From Dehalococcoidia bacterium (GTDB lineage: Bacteria > Chloroflexota > Dehalococcoidia > UBA6926): 64,000 nucleotides of DNA. Below are positions 3,447 to 48,196 of this stretch, piece after piece. Position numbers and translations under genes: made by a program. The stretch covers positions 77,070-141,069 of the forward strand of contig JBJKVP010000004.1 in the NCBI GenBank assembly GCA_045562535.1, written 5' to 3'. Each line of letters starts with the position of its first letter. Position 1 is the first letter of the stretch. The notes below the pieces were generated by a model that saw only the letters and a list, made by a program, of their open reading frames with translations, made no database searches and was not told the DNA's origin.

Positions 3447-3962
3447 TTATTTGAGCCCTCTAATGAGTGCTACACCTAGTAGTAAAGTAATCACTCCAGC
3501 ACCCCTTATTATGTCCACTCGGTGTATTGGTAAACCAAATGCTCCAAGATGATCCAGTAGTACTGAACCAATAACTTGTCCAGCTATAGTTGCTGTTACA
3601 AACAACCCAATACCTATTTTAGGGCCTAAGTAACCAGCACCAACTAGCAAAGGGATAGCAAATAAACCAGTAATAAAATAGTAGAAAGGCAACCCTCGAA
3701 GAACCAAGAGTAAGCTCGCAGCGGCGACGATGGAGATCCCTGCAACCAAAAGGATCCTGTTGAATGGCGAAGGAATCACTAATACCCCATTGAATGCACG
3801 ATATGCCATCAAAGCAGCTACTCCCATAACTGTAGCCATCAAAGATAACCATGTTGCCTCAAGAGGGCCTCTGATTCGGCTCATCGCCGAAATCATTGTA
3901 ACTTGTACCGCCATGCCAGACCCTATCAATATACTAAATACAATGTACAGTATTTGATTCAT
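3447..3962 (-). CDS. DMT-superfamily transporter, DUF606/YdcZ-like (5-TM half-size)
   Basis: 171 aa, highly hydrophobic, about 5 TM helices, glycine-rich helices typical of DUF606 (BAT family). Confidence 0.55.
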   Translation of the reverse strand: MNQILYIVFSILIGSGMAVQVTMISAMSRIRGPLEATWLSLMATVMGVAALMAYRAFNGVLVIPSPFNRILLVAGISIVAAASLLLVLRGLPFYYFITGLFAIPLLVGAGYLGPKIGIGLFVTATIAGQVIGSVLLDHLGAFGLPIHRVDIIRGAGVITLLLGVALIRGLK

Positions 3963-3997
3963 TGGTTAACTCTGCTTACTTTGGCCAATAGTGCTCA

Positions 3998-12704: not shown

Positions 12705-13328
12705 TTACGAGTTGGATTTTTGGCTTCTTGCCCTTAACTCGGATACAGGATCCCAACTAGCATCCTCAATAACACCTATGAACGGTAAATTCCTATAATA
12801 TTCTTCGTAGTCCAATCCGTATCCAACAACAAACAACGGTGGGATTTCAAACCCCAAGTAGTCAACAGGCACCTCTACCTCTCTTTTAGAAACTTTATCA
12901 AGCAGTGTACAAACCTTTATACTGGTCGGGCTCTGCTCTTCCACTGATTTTATGAGGGCAGCGATGGTATGGCCAGTGTCCACAATGTCCTCGACAATCA
13001 CAACATGTTTTCCTTTTATCATGCTGGAATCTCTAATAGTGCTGCTGATGTTATACTCTCCATCCACAAGTGATCGTTCAATACTTGTAACGCCCACCGT
13101 AAGCGGCAAATCCACGTTTCTAATTAAGTCAGTAAGAAAATATAAAGCACCTTTTAAAACGGCCAAGAAAACAACTTCACGGTTCGAATAATCTCGGGTC
13201 AAAATCTGTCCTAGTTCCTGGACACGGGCATTAACTTGCTGTTCAGTCAGCAGCACGCGAGAGACACCTTTTGATGCCCCATTATCGCTAATAAACAACG
13301 AACCTTGTTTGTAGTCGTCTGATCGCAT
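12705..13328 (-). CDS. hpt: Hypoxanthine phosphoribosyltransferase (true start probably internal, which would shorten the N-terminus)
   Basis: PRPP-binding motif VVIVEDIVDTGHT; the C-terminal FVVGYGLDYEEYYRNLPFIGV matches HGPRT. Confidence 0.85.
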   Translation of the reverse strand: MRSDDYKQGSLFISDNGASKGVSRVLLTEQQVNARVQELGQILTRDYSNREVVFLAVLKGALYFLTDLIRNVDLPLTVGVTSIERSLVDGEYNISSTIRDSSMIKGKHVVIVEDIVDTGHTIAALIKSVEEQSPTSIKVCTLLDKVSKREVEVPVDYLGFEIPPLFVVGYGLDYEEYYRNLPFIGVIEDASWDPVSELRARSQKSNS

Positions 13329-13453
13329 AGATTAATACTAAATGAAATTTACTTGATATGCCAGAATAATTTTCGTAAGCTGAATTAAGTCATTTAAATC
13401 TTTACTATATTCACGTATAAACTAACCCAGCAAGTTGAATTAAGGACCAATTA

Positions 13454-13888
13454 ATGAGCGATACCATACTCGGAGCGGGTCTGGCTGCCTTGGCTGCAAC
13501 ATCTTGGGCAATTGGAGCTATTTTTGCTCGGATTGGTATGCAGCATATGGCATCGACTACCGGTACGTTTTTCTCTTTAATTACAGGCTTTCTACTGATA
13601 CTAGTCATAGCGTTATTCCTCGATTATGAAGCTATGTTTACCGTACCTACAGAGACCATATTATGGTTTATTCTTCTTGGATTTATCCAATTTCCCCTTG
13701 GGAGATTTTTGAATTTTAATGGTATTAAATATGCTGGCGTTGCACCTGCTACCGCGATATTAGGTTCTACTCCAGTATTCTCAGCAATACTCGCCTTAGT
13801 TTTCCTGGGAGAACAGATAACCCTAATGATAGGACTGGGGATAATCGCAGTTGTAGCAGGATTAGCAATGGTACTTTATAGGAGTTAA
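13454..13888 (+). CDS. EamA-domain half-transporter (DMT superfamily, about 5 TM)
   Basis: 144 aa, hydrophobic, with EamA-like topology. It is immediately followed by a second half-size EamA gene. Confidence 0.55.
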   Translation: MSDTILGAGLAALAATSWAIGAIFARIGMQHMASTTGTFFSLITGFLLILVIALFLDYEAMFTVPTETILWFILLGFIQFPLGRFLNFNGIKYAGVAPATAILGSTPVFSAILALVFLGEQITLMIGLGIIAVVAGLAMVLYRS

Positions 13889-13895
13889 ATCAAAG

Positions 13896-14366
13896 ATGAC
13901 AATAGAAGCCAATCAAGTAAAAAGGCAGGTCTACATAGGTTTAGCTTCAGCAGTGGCTGCTGCTGCTGCATATGGGGCCACACAAACAATTGCCAGATCC
14001 CTCGTAACCACCGCTGCACCTGCATCAGTTAGTGCTACTTGGACTATATTTTTTGGTATGATTTTCCTTTTTTTCATGTCGCTAAACAATATAAAAACAG
14101 ATATAAAGGCACCTAAGAAAGCTTTTTTTATGATGGGTCTCGCCGGCATTTTCTCGTCATTTGGAGTATTCTTTATGTTCAGTGCCTTAGCAAACGCACC
14201 CGTAACTGTAGCATCTCCAATTGGCGCAATAAACCCTCTAGTAGCAATGGCTTTAACTCATATTTTCCTTCAAAAACTAGAGCGAGTTACTATACAAATG
14301 GTTGCCGGCTCGGTGCTCGTCCTTTTAGGGGTTACTATGGTGATTTTAGGGAGATTTACCGGGTAA
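13896..14366 (+). CDS. EamA-domain half-transporter (DMT superfamily, partner of the preceding gene)
   Basis: 156 aa, hydrophobic, 8 nt downstream of the first half. Likely a heterodimeric pair. Confidence 0.55.
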   Translation: MTIEANQVKRQVYIGLASAVAAAAAYGATQTIARSLVTTAAPASVSATWTIFFGMIFLFFMSLNNIKTDIKAPKKAFFMMGLAGIFSSFGVFFMFSALANAPVTVASPIGAINPLVAMALTHIFLQKLERVTIQMVAGSVLVLLGVTMVILGRFTG

Positions 14367-14490
14367 CCTGTAGTAACACGTATTTCCGCAACATAATGAT
14401 TGATCTAGCTCAATCAAAGCCATTGAGAACAAACCATACATATATATTTCCCTTAGATAATCAAACATAGTTGCTCAAGCTCTGAATTTC

Positions 14491-14519
14491 TTGACAAATC
14501 ATATTACGGCAAATAGGAT
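14491..14519 (+). promoter_or_regulatory. Candidate sigma70-type promoter: TTGACA (14491..14496), 17-nt spacer, TAGGAT (14514..14519)
   Basis: Perfect -35 and a 4/6 -10 seen directly. The predicted start site falls about at the leader-peptide ATG, which implies a leaderless leader peptide. An alternative promoter further upstream is not excluded. Confidence 0.3.
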
Positions 14520-14525
14520 TGGGGA

Positions 14526-14597
14526 ATGAAGGTATACGATCTTAAGGAATACTTTATTTACTACCGCAGGGAATCTGTGGGAGTGGTGGTCGTCTAG
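14526..14597 (+). CDS. Putative attenuation leader peptide MKVYDLKEYFIYYRRESVGVVVV (23 aa; Y-F-I-Y-Y run)
   Basis: Small ORF between the promoter and an intrinsic terminator, upstream of DAHP synthase. Four of five consecutive codons (14550..14564) encode Tyr or Phe. Confidence 0.4.
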   Translation: MKVYDLKEYFIYYRRESVGVVVV

Positions 14598-14623
14598 CTT
14601 ATTTAATCATAGAAACATAAAAA

Positions 14624-14653
14624 CCCTCCCGATAATAATGGGAGGGTTTTTTT
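14624..14653 (+). terminator. Rho-independent terminator / attenuator (CCCTCCC-GATAATAAT-GGGAGGG followed by TTTTTTT)
   Basis: Perfect 7-bp GC stem with a 9-nt loop and 7 T, about 40 nt upstream of the DAHP synthase start and 25 nt downstream of the leader-peptide stop. Confidence 0.65.
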
Positions 14654-14695
14654 GATGAACAAAAAGGGATTTTCTTTTATAGGAGGAGTAAAACC

Positions 14696-15715
14696 ATGAT
14701 CGTTGTAATGAGTAACGGAGCAACGCAATCAAATTTAGATAATGTTATTGACCAAATCGAAGGTTTAGGATACACGGCAGACGTCGAAAAAGGTCAATTT
14801 ACTAATGTAGTTGCGGTGATCGGTGATACAAGGTCAGGAGGAGCTTCAACCTTAGAGGCATTGGATGGAGTAGAACGAGTGATACCTATAATGAAGCCGT
14901 ATAAACACGTAAGCAGAGAATTCCGAAAAGAAAACACTGTTATAGAATTGCCAAACGGTACGACAATCGGCGGCAACAAAATAGCTATGATGGTAGGCCC
15001 TTGTGCAGTTGAAGATCAAGAACAAGTTAAAACAATGGCGGAAGCCGATAAAGAATTGGGTTTCCCTATTTTAAGAGGTGGTGCCTTTAAACCACGAACG
15101 TCTCCTTACGCGTTTCAAGGCCTTGGTTTAGAGGGACTTAGGATTCTACGTGAAGAAGCAGATAAAAATGGCTTGATGGTAATCACGGAGGTAATGTCTG
15201 AAGCCGACGTGGAAATGTGTGTGGAATATGCAGACATATTACAAATTGGTGCACGAACCATGCACGCTTTTAGGTTACTCAAAGAAGTTGGAAAAACTCG
15301 TAAACCTGTTTTATTAAAAAGAGGCTTCCATGCAACTATAAGAGAATGGCTCTTAAGTGCAGAATACATAATCAGCGAAGGTAATTGGAACGTAATATTG
15401 TGCGAGCGAGGGATAAGAACTTTCGACGATGAATTTTCGAGAAATGTTTTGGATTTAACAGCAGTACAAATCTTAAAAAAAGAATCTCATCTTCCAGTGA
15501 TCGTTGATCCAAGTCATGGTACTGGCCAACGAGACCTGGTAGTGCCAATGGCAAAAGCCGCTATTGCAGCAGGAGCAGATGGGCTAATAATTGAAGCACA
15601 TCCAGACCCAACCAAAGCCTTATCGGACGGACCTCAATCTTTACCGGTAGAAGAATTACCTTCTCTTCGAACAGAATTAGAGAAAGTAGTATCAGTAATG
15701 GGAAGAACTATCTAG
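14696..15715 (+). CDS. 3-deoxy-7-phosphoheptulonate (DAHP) synthase, type I-beta, with N-terminal ACT/ferredoxin-like regulatory domain
   Basis: 339 aa. The C-terminal about 260 aa match the KDSA/DAHPS I-beta barrel (GPCAVE, KPRTSPY, DPSHG). The N-terminal about 75-aa extension resembles Thermotoga-type allosteric (Tyr/Phe-sensing) DAHP synthases. Confidence 0.85.
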   Translation: MIVVMSNGATQSNLDNVIDQIEGLGYTADVEKGQFTNVVAVIGDTRSGGASTLEALDGVERVIPIMKPYKHVSREFRKENTVIELPNGTTIGGNKIAMMVGPCAVEDQEQVKTMAEADKELGFPILRGGAFKPRTSPYAFQGLGLEGLRILREEADKNGLMVITEVMSEADVEMCVEYADILQIGARTMHAFRLLKEVGKTRKPVLLKRGFHATIREWLLSAEYIISEGNWNVILCERGIRTFDDEFSRNVLDLTAVQILKKESHLPVIVDPSHGTGQRDLVVPMAKAAIAAGADGLIIEAHPDPTKALSDGPQSLPVEELPSLRTELEKVVSVMGRTI

Positions 15716-15762
15716 AAAGAACTAGCAATAATAGCTAGTTCAAAGGTAAACTACCCTCTGAT

Positions 15763-15849
15763 GGCAGGATGGCGGAGCGGTCAAACGCACCAGGCTGTAA
15801 ACTTGGCGCCCTTAGGGCTACGGGGGTTCAAATCCCTCTCCTGCCACCA
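15763..15849 (+). tRNA. tRNA-Tyr (anticodon GUA), class II with long variable arm, CCA encoded
   Basis: Folded by hand. The acceptor GGCAGGA pairs with TCCTGCC. The anticodon stem is CCAGG/CTTGG with loop CTGTAAA. The variable arm is GCCC-TTA-GGGC. T-loop is TTCAAAT and the 3' end is ACCA. Confidence 0.85.
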
Positions 15850-15929
15850 ATATGTCTTATTGGAAATATTGTTACAATAAAAGGCGTATCATTGTTATCA
15901 TCAGAGACACTAACAAAGGTAACCAATAA

Positions 15930-17174
15930 ATGAGCCAACAGTCTTTCCACATACCAGAAGCCAACGAAGCTTTAGCAAGCACAACGTTAGATGGACTTGT
16001 TTCTAGAGGGTTAATAGAAGAAATCATTGTCCGAGATGAACTAAATCAAGCGATTGAATCAGGCAATAAACTCACAATTTATCAAGGTTTTGATCCAACT
16101 AGCCCAAGCCTCCACTTAGGACATTATTTATCGCTCAGGATACTGCGCTGGTTTCAATTAAATGGTCATAGAGTAATATTTTTGGTTGGAGATTTCACCG
16201 CGAGAATTGGGGATCCCTCGGAGCAAACAGCTGAAAGGAAACAGCTTTCAAAAGATCAAGTGGTAAGCAACACTTCTAATTGGCTCAATCAAATTTCCAG
16301 GGTACTTGATCTTCAAGAAACTAATCCTGTAGAAATCAAATATAACAGCGAGTGGCTAAGCAAATTATCACTGGAAGATATTATGAATTTATCTTCTCAA
16401 ATAACAGTTCAAAGGCTCATTGAGCGTGACATGTTCCAAAAAAGAATCCAAGAGAATAAACCCTTACACATGCATGAAACTCTTTATCCAATACTGCAAG
16501 GGTATGACTCCGTTGCGATGAACGTTGATATAGAACTAGGTGGTAGAGATCAAATGTTTAATATGCTCGTGGGAAGAGATTTTGTTCGAACTACGCATAA
16601 ACATGCTAAGCATGTATTAATGACTCCTCTAATCCCAGGGCTCGACGGAAGAAAGATGAGCAAAACTTATAACAACACAGTGGACTTAGATGAGCGACCT
16701 GCAGAGATGTACTTTAAATTAACACAAATAAACGACGAGCTTTTACCGTTATTTTTTAGCATCTTTACAGATATACCAGATGATGAATTAGAAGATATCT
16801 CCAAAAAAATCAACAGTAAGGAAGAAATGCGACCAGATAGATCCCGGTTATCTTATGAAATAGTAAAGGTTTTCCATGGAGAGGAAGTAGCTAACAACGC
16901 TAGACGAGAATTTAATAGAGTTATAGCTCAAGGAGAACAAAGAGAAGACCTTTTAGAAATCTCAGTTCCCGTGCAGGAGGAGTTTTCCATACTGGAACTT
17001 TGCATCCTTTCAAATCAACTTTCAAGCAAGGGCGATGCAAGGCGACTTATAAAGCAAGGTGCAATTGAAATCGATGGAGAAAAATATACCGATCCCAACA
17101 AAACAGTCCTAAGCTCAACTATTCAAGGAAAGGTAATTAAAATAGGAAACAGGGGATACTTCAAATTTAAGTGA
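15930..17174 (+). CDS. tyrS: Tyrosine--tRNA ligase
   Basis: 414 aa. HIGH motif (SLHLGHY), KMSKS (KMSKT), and a C-terminal S4-like domain. Confidence 0.9.
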   Translation: MSQQSFHIPEANEALASTTLDGLVSRGLIEEIIVRDELNQAIESGNKLTIYQGFDPTSPSLHLGHYLSLRILRWFQLNGHRVIFLVGDFTARIGDPSEQTAERKQLSKDQVVSNTSNWLNQISRVLDLQETNPVEIKYNSEWLSKLSLEDIMNLSSQITVQRLIERDMFQKRIQENKPLHMHETLYPILQGYDSVAMNVDIELGGRDQMFNMLVGRDFVRTTHKHAKHVLMTPLIPGLDGRKMSKTYNNTVDLDERPAEMYFKLTQINDELLPLFFSIFTDIPDDELEDISKKINSKEEMRPDRSRLSYEIVKVFHGEEVANNARREFNRVIAQGEQREDLLEISVPVQEEFSILELCILSNQLSSKGDARRLIKQGAIEIDGEKYTDPNKTVLSSTIQGKVIKIGNRGYFKFK

Positions 17175-17196: not shown

Positions 17197-18072
17197 ATGA
17201 ATCAAATTGAAACACCCAAAGTTGGATTTCTTCAGCCGGAATCTACATTTACTCATCTAGCAGCGATGGAACAGTTCGGATCAAACGCAAACTACATTCC
17301 AATGGAAACGTACGCGATTTGCCACGATATAAAGAACTCGTCACTGGATTACGGAGTTCTAGCTATCGAAAACGTATTTGAAGGAACTGTTGGAACAACT
17401 ATGGACGCAGTTCTCACTACCGATCAAGTTAGTGTTGTAGGGGAAATAATACTGCCTATATCTCACCATCTATTATCAAACGATAAGATTAGCGAAATAA
17501 CACGAATTTATTCTCATCAACAAGCTATTAGCCAATGTAGAAAACATATATCTTCATTAGAAAAAGAATTAGGCCACGACATAGAAATTATAACTGAAGC
17601 TAGCACCGCAAGAGGAGCAGAACGAGCTGCTCATTCAGCAGAAAAAGGTTCTGCTGCTATCGCTCCTGCATTAGCTGCAGAAAAATATAATCTTCAAATT
17701 CTCAGGGGAAATATGGAAGATGAAAAAGATAACGCCACTAGGTTTTGGGTTTTAGGACACGACGGATACTCGACACCGAGCGGGAACGATAAAACAACTT
17801 TTAGTTTCGACGTAGAAAATGAGTCTGGCGCCTTAGTTTCAGTTTTGAACACGTTTTCAAGCCGTGGATTAAGTGCAACGATGTTACAATCGAGGCCATC
17901 AAAATTAGATAGATCTGCAGGGATTTGGGAGTACACTTTCTTTGCGGAATTTCTAGGTCATATAACAGACCAACCTCTTAAAGAATCCTATGATTTACTT
18001 AGCAGTGGATCAAATTCTGTATGCAAACAGATAAGACTTTTAGGAAGTTATCCCCGTTTCCTGACAAAATAG
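17197..18072 (+). CDS. pheA: Prephenate dehydratase (PDT plus C-terminal ACT domain)
   Basis: 291 aa. TRF motif (NATRFWVLG) and an ACT domain (FSFDVENESGALVSVLNTF). Confidence 0.85.
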   Translation: MNQIETPKVGFLQPESTFTHLAAMEQFGSNANYIPMETYAICHDIKNSSLDYGVLAIENVFEGTVGTTMDAVLTTDQVSVVGEIILPISHHLLSNDKISEITRIYSHQQAISQCRKHISSLEKELGHDIEIITEASTARGAERAAHSAEKGSAAIAPALAAEKYNLQILRGNMEDEKDNATRFWVLGHDGYSTPSGNDKTTFSFDVENESGALVSVLNTFSSRGLSATMLQSRPSKLDRSAGIWEYTFFAEFLGHITDQPLKESYDLLSSGSNSVCKQIRLLGSYPRFLTK

Positions 18073-46843: not shown

Positions 46844-47941
46844 TTATCGGCGAACAACTATATCCACCCAATCCGAAATCCATTTATCCAAGTCTTGAGC
46901 AGAAGCATTTAATTGAATTTCTGGTTTAGAATCAGGTTCAGGAGCAAATTGGAATATTTTTGGAACAAGCGCTTTCTTGTTTACAGGATAAACCCACATT
47001 CTTGTAGGAAAATCCTCTTGGAATCTTTTATTTAGAGCATAATCGATGAAACGTTCTGCCAGTCTCTGATTGTTTGAACCTCTTAAAATTCCAATTGTTT
47101 CTACTTGCAAAAACACAGCGTTCTTGTTCATCAAAACGCCAGTCGGAGGAGAGTCCATTGTTCCATCAGAATAATATACTTCAGCTGCAGGGCTAGTTGA
47201 ATAACTTACAACTAAGGGTCGGTCACCACCCCATAAACTAAACGCCGTATAGTAGGCATCGCTCCATCCATCGCTTACCTTTACATCGTTAGACTTAAGA
47301 TCAGACCAATATTCTTTCCAAGTATAGTCTCCGTCCTCACCAAATCTATTAATTGTTGTCAGCAAAAATGCCAATCCAGGAGAAGAAGTCGCCGGGTTCT
47401 GAACAACAAGTTTACCTCTCCATTTTTCAGTAGTTAACTCATATAAATCGCTGGGAGGTGTCAATTGGTTAGAATCTATCCATGATAAATCATAATTAAC
47501 TGCAACATATCCGTAATCAATAGGAGTAACCCTATATTTTGGATCAATATGAAATTTTTCCGGTACCTGATCTACCAAAGGAGATCTATAAGGAATGAAA
47601 AGGGATTCTTTTAAAGCTCTATTTAAAAAAGTATTATCTATTCCGTAAATCAAATCTGCTATGGGAGCATCTTTCGTTAAAATTGCTTTAGTTAAGATTT
47701 CCCCTGCATCTCCGCCTTTTTGAATAATCACTTCTACATTGTAATCATGTTCAAATTGATCGATCAGCTCTTCCCCAATATCAAAGCTATCATGAGTCAA
47801 TATAATAAGTGGCTTATCCGTTGAGTTATCAATCGTACAGCCCTGCACTACCGTAGCTAAAATAATAACAGCGAGTAATAATTTGGATTTGTTTTTGAAC
47901 AACCGTAACCATCGGTCCATGACTAATAGGTTTAGCTTCAT
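46844..47941 (-). CDS. thiB: Thiamine/TPP-binding periplasmic lipoprotein (ThiB/TbpA-like); start moved from the six-frame ORF to ATG 47939..47941
   Basis: Lipobox LATVVQGC. Blocks matching E. coli ThiB recalled from memory (DYGYVAVNYD, GWSDAYY, LVVSYSTSPA, MWVYPV, WISDWV). The longer six-frame ORF would translate the riboswitch itself. Confidence 0.75.
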   Translation of the reverse strand: MKLNLLVMDRWLRLFKNKSKLLLAVIILATVVQGCTIDNSTDKPLIILTHDSFDIGEELIDQFEHDYNVEVIIQKGGDAGEILTKAILTKDAPIADLIYGIDNTFLNRALKESLFIPYRSPLVDQVPEKFHIDPKYRVTPIDYGYVAVNYDLSWIDSNQLTPPSDLYELTTEKWRGKLVVQNPATSSPGLAFLLTTINRFGEDGDYTWKEYWSDLKSNDVKVSDGWSDAYYTAFSLWGGDRPLVVSYSTSPAAEVYYSDGTMDSPPTGVLMNKNAVFLQVETIGILRGSNNQRLAERFIDYALNKRFQEDFPTRMWVYPVNKKALVPKIFQFAPEPDSKPEIQLNASAQDLDKWISDWVDIVVRR

Positions 47942-48040
47942 GATAGTTTTCCCTCCGCCGGAATTACCCAGACAGGTTCTAACGGTCGCCTTAATCAAAT
48001 TAAGGCCTCTCAGCCAGGAAACCTAGCTCCCGAAGACGTT
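47942..48040 (-). ncRNA. TPP (thiamine pyrophosphate) riboswitch, THI element, with the P1 3' strand overlapping the thiB Shine-Dalgarno
   Basis: The minus-strand RNA reads CUUCGGGAGCUAGGUUUCCUGGCUGAGAGGCC...GACCGUUAGAACCUGUCUGGGUAAUUCCGGCGGAGGGAAAACUAUCAUG. This matches the consensus GGGGUGCCC...CUGAGA...ACCCUUUGAACCUGAUCUGGAUAAUGCCAGCGUAGGGAA. Confidence 0.75.
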
Positions 48041-48196
48041 ACTCGATATTTATAACAGGAGAATTTTAATAAGTAAATAGTTTACATTTGCCGCGAGAAT
48101 CGATTGGCTAGTAGAATGATAGATAACAGATCTTTAGAGGATACTAAATATATTTAAGATGGATATTAATTAATTGGGAAGTGAGGATTAATTATT

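Follow-up and report, generated by a model that had tools for sequence, protein, structure and literature searches.

We identified a conserved, aromatic-rich leader upstream of the DAHP synthase gene in an uncultured Dehalococcoidia bacterium, and this leader very probably works as a classical ribosome-mediated (leader-peptide) transcription attenuator controlling that feedback-regulated enzyme. The window analyzed is a stretch of 64,000 nucleotides (contig JBJKVP010000004.1, positions 77,070 to 141,069 of the forward strand), and all coordinates below are those of the window. On the evidence of sequence comparison and RNA folding, we regard the leader as a real, conserved and previously uncatalogued example of a well-known type of regulator, and we infer that it would respond to the supply of aromatic amino acids. 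An attenuator of the trp/pheA type had been proposed here from the letters of the window, and every part of that original prediction that could be checked at the sequence level agreed with it. The promoter, the 23-codon open reading frame (ORF), the terminator and the DAHP synthase gene lie where it placed them, and four of the five consecutive codons it singled out do encode Tyr or Phe. The elements of the leader and the gene it precedes are as follows.

14491 to 14519, plus strand: promoter, with the -35 hexamer TTGACA at 14491 to 14496, a 17-nucleotide spacer and the -10 hexamer TAGGAT at 14514 to 14519, read from the sequence.
14526 to 14597, plus strand: leader ORF of 23 codons and a stop, from ATG 14526 to TAG 14595 to 14597, encoding the peptide MKVYDLKEYFIYYRRESVGVVVV, read from the sequence.
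14550 to 14564, plus strand: regulatory codons Tyr9-Phe10-Ile11-Tyr12-Tyr13 (UAC UUU AUU UAC UAC), read from the sequence.
14558 to 14586, plus strand: 1:2 hairpin (anti-antiterminator and possible pause hairpin), UUACU.CCGCAG / CUGUGG.AGUGG, -11.9 kcal/mol by RNAfold.
14578 to 14587, plus strand: segment 2, the 5' strand of the antiterminator, UGGGAG(u)GGU, from folding.
14620 to 14631, plus strand: segment 3, the 5' arm of the terminator, AAAACCCUCCCG, of which bases 14623 to 14631 alternatively pair with segment 2.
14639 to 14653, plus strand: segment 4, the 3' arm of the terminator, UGGGAGGGUUUU, with the T7 run at 14647 to 14653, from folding.
14696 to 15715, plus strand: DAHP synthase gene, 339 amino acids from ATG 14696, with the Shine-Dalgarno sequence AGGAGG at 14681 to 14686 and matches to Pfam PF00793 and PF18152.

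In a scan of positions 13300 to 16200 the TTGACA/TAGGAT pair was the top promoter-like site, with 10 of 12 matches, and the A of the leader ATG falls 7 nucleotides past its -10 hexamer. The terminator has a 12-bp stem with CCCTCCC (14624 to 14630) and GGGAGGG (14640 to 14646) at its core, followed by the T7 run. It is only about 125 nucleotides from the transcription start, and 42 nucleotides separate the T run from the DAHP synthase ATG. A custom scan of the whole window found it to be the sole strong hairpin with a T5 run just upstream of a long ORF. A simple consensus scan for terminators did not list it, probably because the stem runs into flanking A/T runs and leaves too few T's for the tail rule.

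RNAfold gave -17.4 kcal/mol for the 3:4 terminator (14620 to 14653) and -13.1 kcal/mol, loop included, for the 2:3 antiterminator, in which positions 14578 to 14587 pair with ACCCUCCCG at 14623 to 14631 through 9 bp and one bulge. These two structures, both of which had been anticipated, and the 1:2 hairpin are mutually exclusive, and the energy ranking of the three recalls the E. coli trp attenuator. The GGGAG that had been expected to pair with CUCCC of the terminator arm does so, as part of the 9-bp bulged helix rather than as a 5-bp one; it occupies positions 14579 to 14583, 2 nucleotides downstream of the 14577 to 14581 originally given. The duplex of segment 2 with the terminator arm has a predicted energy of -14.3 kcal/mol (p = 0.012 for the window when the exposed segment was shuffled), and the fold of the whole leader is more stable than that of shuffled sequences (z = -4.0). 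Segment 2 lies wholly inside the leader ORF, its 3' end 8 nucleotides short of the stop codon, and the codons for Tyr12 and Tyr13 sit within the 5' strand of the 1:2 hairpin.

The consequences of translation were simulated by masking a ribosome at successive codons with four assumed footprint edges and folding the RNA as it would be before the 3' arm of the terminator is made. When the A site was placed anywhere from Tyr9 through Tyr13, 7 to 9 of the 12 terminator-arm bases paired with segment 2 at every footprint edge, so that a stall on the Tyr/Phe codons would leave segment 2 free, as had been proposed. Pairing drops with the A site at Arg14 or Arg15, to an extent set by the assumed edge. 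From Ser17 on, 0 to 2 arm bases are paired, and at the stop codon none, consistent with the proposal that a ribosome there covers segment 2 and lets the terminator form. The Tyr/Phe cluster therefore marks the last positions at which a stall can antiterminate. None of the arm bases paired with segment 2 when the ribosome was left out, because the 1:2 hairpin then forms.

These structures suggest the following mechanism. Transcription would begin at or beside ATG 14526, a start deduced from the conserved TTGACA/TAGGAT promoter, and a ribosome would load on the leaderless 5' end and translate the 23-codon ORF as RNA polymerase advances. A shortage of charged tRNA-Tyr or tRNA-Phe would stall the ribosome on the YFIYY codons, where it would occupy segment 1 and block the 1:2 hairpin. 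Segment 2, just outside the stalled footprint, could then pair with the 5' arm of the terminator (14623 to 14631) as soon as it is made; the terminator could not fold and the polymerase would read into the DAHP synthase gene. With Tyr and Phe plentiful, the ribosome would reach the TAG at 14595 and cover segment 2, the 3:4 hairpin would form and transcription would stop at the T7 run. Termination would also be expected when the leader is not translated, with segment 2 sequestered by the 1:2 hairpin.

Orthologous loci were collected from GTDB genomes, from JGI metagenomes and from other assemblies reached through homologous proteins. The closest relatives of the window are metagenome-assembled Dehalococcoidia (Chloroflexota). 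Among the relatives, L039 to L041 derive from marine metagenomes of the Tara type, and OZ242191.1, OZ250138.1 and OZ243973.1 are complete genomes. The comparison set consisted of 20 Chloroflexota loci with upstream DNA, in which the DAHP synthases are 60 to 94% identical and the G+C content of the leaders ranges from 31 to 64% (that of the window as a whole is 39%). Structural conservation was judged by folding each sequence separately under ribosome masks and by shuffle tests.

Upstream of DAHP synthase, all 20 relatives have a short ORF that contains an aromatic cluster and, 3' of the ORF, an intrinsic terminator, which bears out the conservation anticipated for such an ORF. Examples of the leader peptides are MRLYDFKEYFIYYCRESAGVVVV, MNYQTFKYYFMYADGICTAEVFSRSR, MMIGTGYRYYYFSYPLRGGSPVLPV and MARSAYYYFAFTYAREMGAATAIE, and further examples include ..AWSYYRFFYGPDKAGGFSRL, MLNRAIRSLYFWSFYPPQGEWEDLGRR and ..GWFGFYYFYFALDATGGSATAAMD. 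The clusters vary (YRYYYF, YYYFAF, YFWSFY and FYYFYF, among others) by both synonymous and aromatic-for-aromatic changes. Each of the 20 also has a G-rich segment within the ORF that is complementary to the 5' arm of its terminator, and under the same footprint simulation the fold with a stalled ribosome contains the antiterminator in every case. Segment 2 begins 13 to 27 nucleotides past the last aromatic codon and ends 0 to 18 nucleotides before the stop codon. A hairpin like 1:2, directly 3' of the aromatic codons, is predicted in most relatives. The sequences that pair have themselves diverged, being UGGGAG with CUCCCG in the window, GCGGGG with CCCCGC in locus L003, UGCGGAGG with CUUUCGCA in L042 and GGGAGGGUCGG with CCGACCCUCCC in L061. 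Judged from these four sequences, complementarity is maintained while the sequence diverges.

Within the leaders, the sequence TTTA (a UUU Phe codon plus A, in the alignment block near window positions 14553 to 14556) is nearly invariant, even at 55 to 64% G+C, and UAU Tyr codons are also frequent around the same block. This preference for UUU and UAU at the sensing site may reflect selection for slower, wobble-decoded codons.

Shuffle tests gave p ≤ 0.005 for the aromatic clusters of six GC-rich leaders, and the segment 2 duplex was significant in most relatives. When 11 divergent leaders were combined by Fisher's method, p was about 2e-10 for the clusters of aromatic codons and 1.5e-7 for the duplex; given the relatedness of the lineages, these values serve as an indication only. 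The genes upstream of the leader differ or run divergently in L054 to L061, while the leader stays with DAHP synthase, and the leader must therefore belong to that gene. We take this conservation among the sequences of the relatives, over the statistics of the window, as the decisive support for an attenuator.

Several observations weigh against this reading. The full-length minimum-free-energy fold always keeps the terminator, even with a stalled ribosome, so that the choice must be made kinetically, as it is in known attenuators. In several of the high-GC relatives the antiterminator appears even in the fold with no ribosome, making the "default off" role of the 1:2 hairpin less clear there. 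MAFFT alignments, both of the leaders and of the stretch from segment 2 to the terminator, put the pairing segments out of register, since the position of the bulge and the length of the spacer differ between groups, and they yielded no covariation count. Leaderless genes are predicted to be infrequent in Chloroflexi, at about 5% in 4 of 12 genomes (PMC3160421). Finally, the Tyr/Phe cluster of the window, taken alone, is marginal (p of about 0.09 against dinucleotide shuffles of this AT-rich DNA).

That marginal value, together with the fact that intergenic hairpins are common, is what could be said for the absence of any regulation, with the hairpin serving as the terminator of the upstream EamA transporter genes or as a constitutive partial terminator and with the ORF and the complementarity arising by chance. 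We consider this extremely improbable. The terminator is downstream of a conserved promoter and 258 nucleotides past the EamA stop codon, and the leader remains with DAHP synthase in relatives with different or divergent upstream genes. The aromatic clusters of the six GC-rich relatives and the duplexes of most relatives are significant in the tests given above. An unregulated leader is thus already contradicted by the comparative sequence data.

The peptides also bear on what an attenuator of this kind would sense. Outside the aromatic cluster the peptide is unconserved, even among relatives whose DAHP synthases are 93 to 94% identical, with the exception of recurring Gly residues, which result from the G-rich RNA of segment 2. 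A translated ORF could gate the terminator and yet report general translation capacity rather than Tyr/Phe supply, since any stall before Arg14 gives the same RNA outcome in the simulation, or the peptide could have a function of its own, given that a Gly-rich or hydrophobic C-terminal part recurs among the peptides. We find both quite improbable. The Tyr/Phe/Trp cluster is the only peptide feature common to all lineages and sits at the last positions where stalling can free segment 2; the Gly residues are explained by the RNA, and the other residues vary freely even between close relatives. The regulated gene, moreover, encodes the first common step of Tyr, Phe and Trp synthesis.

Judging from promoter geometry only, translation of the leader ORF probably begins on a leaderless mRNA. 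The motif TTGACA-N17/18-TAnnnT occurs at the same place in 15 relatives despite diverged surrounding DNA, and the distance from the -10 hexamer to the first in-frame start codon is 7 to 11 nucleotides in 13 leaders. This puts the start codon at the usual site of transcription initiation, suggesting a leaderless mRNA. No conserved Shine-Dalgarno sequence was found before the leader ORFs; L001 has no purine-rich stretch before its ATG (TAGGATTAGCAAATG), and the GGGG of the window is only 2 nucleotides from the leader ATG. The exceptions are L055 and L057, which have AAGGAG 5 to 6 nucleotides before a GTG. Leaderless leader peptides are documented in the Actinobacteria, namely in Streptomyces (PMC8079986). 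Corynebacterium and Mycobacterium are efficient at translating leaderless mRNAs.

Rfam searches at the gathering threshold detected no leader family and no T-box in the window or in the loci of 17 relatives. When positions 14300 to 14760 were searched at E ≤ 10, the plus strand gave 18.4 bits for Phe_leader RF01859 (gathering threshold 55), 21.8 bits for Leu_leader RF00512 (threshold 50) and 16.4 bits for His_leader RF00514 (threshold 49), whereas neither Trp_leader RF00513 nor T-box RF00230 was matched even at that cutoff. The weak matches (to ncr1575, Phe_leader, Leu_leader and His_leader) are driven by the terminator. A T-box, a TRAP- or PyrR-type leader and a riboswitch were accordingly set aside as candidates, the searches of the window, of 14300 to 14760 and of the 17 relatives' loci having given nothing relevant. 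Elsewhere in the window, Rfam matched a TPP riboswitch (RF00059, positions 47933 to 48043, minus strand, 59.6 bits) above its gathering threshold.

The same searches bear on the idea that the switch is real and is set by a factor acting in trans on the leader RNA, be it a protein like TRAP or PyrR, a metabolite, or uncharged tRNA as for a T-box, with the ORF being incidental. Many Gram-positive-type bacteria use T-boxes or TRAP for tyrS and aromatic genes, the leader folds better than its shuffles (z = -4.0, as above), and the UGGU in segment 2 superficially resembles a T-box bulge. Such control is nonetheless very improbable here. Besides the lack of any T-box, PyrR or other Rfam family at threshold in the window or the 17 loci, the leader of about 125 nucleotides is without Stem I or specifier architecture, and no evenly spaced GAG/UAG triplet repeats were seen on reading it. 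What is conserved from 31 to 64% G+C is the in-frame aromatic codons and their spacing to segment 2 and the stop codon, rather than an aptamer-like fold.

The DAHP synthase downstream of this leader has an N-terminal ferredoxin-like regulatory domain (PF18152, residues 1 to 67), as had been supposed, and its match to PDB 1RZM/3PG9 spans the full length (E = 4e-108). We take these structures to be of the Thermotoga maritima enzyme, whose N-terminal domain confers feedback inhibition by Tyr and Phe. Attenuation combined with allosteric inhibition through this domain would place entry into the shikimate pathway under control at two levels. The leader occupies a 329-nucleotide intergenic region between the EamA genes and DAHP synthase. 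The neighboring genes are as follows.

13454 to 13888 and 13896 to 14366: two half-size EamA transporter genes, of 144 and 156 amino acids.
15763 to 15849, plus strand: tRNA-Tyr(GTA).
15930 to 17174, plus strand: tyrosyl-tRNA synthetase (TyrRS, tyrS), 414 amino acids.
17197 to 18072, plus strand: prephenate dehydratase (pheA).

A gene for a PF03601 membrane protein comes after prephenate dehydratase. The same split of EamA is seen in L052, L053 and L057, and the two genes are therefore probably real rather than the remains of a frameshifted pseudogene. An inverted repeat, CTCAAT-N7-ATTGAG, is found at 14409 to 14427, about 65 nucleotides upstream of the -35 hexamer, and may represent either an operator or a 3' hairpin belonging to the upstream gene. 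Its presence in the 93 to 94% relatives is uninformative, as these are too closely related.

The order DAHP synthase, tRNA-Tyr, tyrS is kept across relatives (L001 to L006, L021, L042, L045, L052, L054, L056 and L057), and the terminator scan detected no intrinsic terminator between DAHP synthase and the tRNA-Tyr, tyrS and pheA genes. As no terminator separates them, polymerases that pass the attenuator might read on past DAHP synthase into tRNA-Tyr, TyrRS and prephenate dehydratase. The full proposal, that a leaderless, Tyr-dominated attenuator is ancestral to a large part of the Dehalococcoidia and that this read-through occurs, is tentative, and we think it rather unlikely. If it were true, one sensor of Tyr/Phe-tRNA charging would co-regulate precursor supply, the sensed tRNA, its synthetase and Phe synthesis, in place of the T-boxes that control tyrS in other Gram-positive-type lineages. 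A literature search for attenuator-controlled tRNA-Phe genes found nothing.

A TAnnnT hexamer is located 10 nucleotides upstream of the mature 5' end of tRNA-Tyr in 14 of the 14 loci that hold the tRNA. It is TAAACT (15747 to 15752) in the window and TAGAAT, TACAAT or TAAAAT in relatives, and L003, in which tRNA-Tyr and DAHP synthase are separated by a 657-amino-acid ORF, has it too. A separate promoter for the tRNA-tyrS-pheA unit is therefore probable, and control of the unit by the attenuator would be at most partial. The attenuator as the sole control of tRNA-Tyr and tyrS, which was considered, is weakened by the conservation of this hexamer, even in L003.

Directly after the DAHP synthase stop codon there is a perfect 8-bp hairpin, GAACUAGC / GCUAGUUC, with a 7-nucleotide loop and no T run (15719 to 15741), and similar hairpins are present in L001 and L006. 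It may protect the 3' end of the mRNA after 5' processing of the tRNA. The TyrRS also differs in length among these loci, having 417 amino acids in L001 and L006 versus 678 to 700 in L052 and higher-GC relatives (L002, L004, L005, L052, L054, L056 and L057). The long form carries an N-terminal B3_4 domain (PF03483), which we take to be the domain type of the editing site in the PheRS beta subunit, and it is thus a fusion to a possible Phe/Tyr proofreading module. In L052, which has the long form, DAHP synthase is 84% identical to that of the window and the leader is 52% G+C.

Beyond the Chloroflexota, L007 to L012 (Latescibacterota and others, at about 50% identity) have no comparable aromatic-rich short ORF upstream of the DAHP synthase start, in loci not scanned for terminators. 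A Thermotogae metagenome-assembled genome, L013 (CAXXJZ010000013.1, about 3820 to 3980), has a short ORF, MRENLFINRNTFEYYYFRSNRIRP, that is led by a Shine-Dalgarno sequence and has two hairpins with U runs downstream. This ORF precedes the same type of DAHP synthase, with the ferredoxin domain, and the antiterminator partner is outside the ORF, making the architecture different. From its sequence, the L013 leader has the look of an aromatic attenuator analogous to this one, in a different phylum. The gene calls for P0006 include one of 35 amino acids upstream of DAHP synthase.

The searchable literature, to which the survey of Lopatovskaya et al. 2010 does not belong, yielded no account of aromatic leader-peptide attenuation in the Chloroflexi or Dehalococcoidia. 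With this leader, a well-supported family of regulatory RNA absent from Rfam is added for a group (Chloroflexota/Dehalococcoidia) of mostly uncultured organisms, about whose gene regulation hardly anything is known. The leader also suggests that ribosome-mediated aromatic attenuation, and probably leaderless leader peptides also, extend well beyond the Proteobacteria and Actinobacteria. The 20 divergent leaders form a ready seed set for a covariance model and for the annotation of metagenome-assembled genomes. The mechanism itself is a textbook one, and may be more satisfying than surprising to the specialist.

Like trpL and pheL (pheA) of E. coli, the Dehalococcoidia leader has its regulatory codons in segment 1 and alternative 1:2, 2:3 and 3:4 pairings. 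The antiterminator is likewise weaker than the terminator, implying a kinetic choice, and the terminator is a few tens of nucleotides before the first structural gene. Unlike the E. coli leaders, the ORF here is probably leaderless rather than Shine-Dalgarno-led, and segment 2 is wholly inside it. T-box riboswitches (RF00230), the usual regulators of tyrS and aromatic genes in the Firmicutes, also sense tRNA charging through a choice between terminator and antiterminator. They do so by direct binding of tRNA to a leader of about 200 nucleotides or more, without the translation on which the present leader would depend.

The trpL, leuL, ilvL, thrL and other leaders of Streptomyces lividans resemble the one described here in having an ORF at the transcription start, with no 5' untranslated region, followed by hairpins and often a U run (PMC8079986). 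Leaderless attenuators in Streptomyces occur before biosynthetic and aminoacyl-tRNA synthetase genes, and no aromatic or DAHP synthase example is listed among them (PMC8079986). The leaderless starts of Streptomyces were mapped by RNA-seq, whereas those of the Chloroflexota are deduced from a -10 hexamer 7 to 11 nucleotides before the start codon.

Aromatic leader-peptide attenuation had been thought to be described mainly in the Proteobacteria, yet it is documented in the Actinobacteria as well, including aroR-aroF of Corynebacterium glutamicum (PMC11802643, PMC4046766). In E. coli, DAHP synthase is controlled by the TyrR and TrpR repressors rather than by attenuation (PMC11802643). In the C. 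glutamicum system (Neshat et al. 2014), as reported, a leader peptide with Phe-Tyr-Phe is encoded directly upstream of the DAHP synthase gene, and stalling at the aromatic codons raises downstream transcription, with only Phe limitation being effective (PMC11802643, PMC4046766). Compared through that published description only, aroR-aroF is the closest functional analogue of the Dehalococcoidia leader, since both place an aromatic leader peptide before DAHP synthase outside the Proteobacteria; the Chloroflexota leader differs from its actinobacterial counterpart in being longer and dominated by Tyr (YFIYY plus Tyr4).

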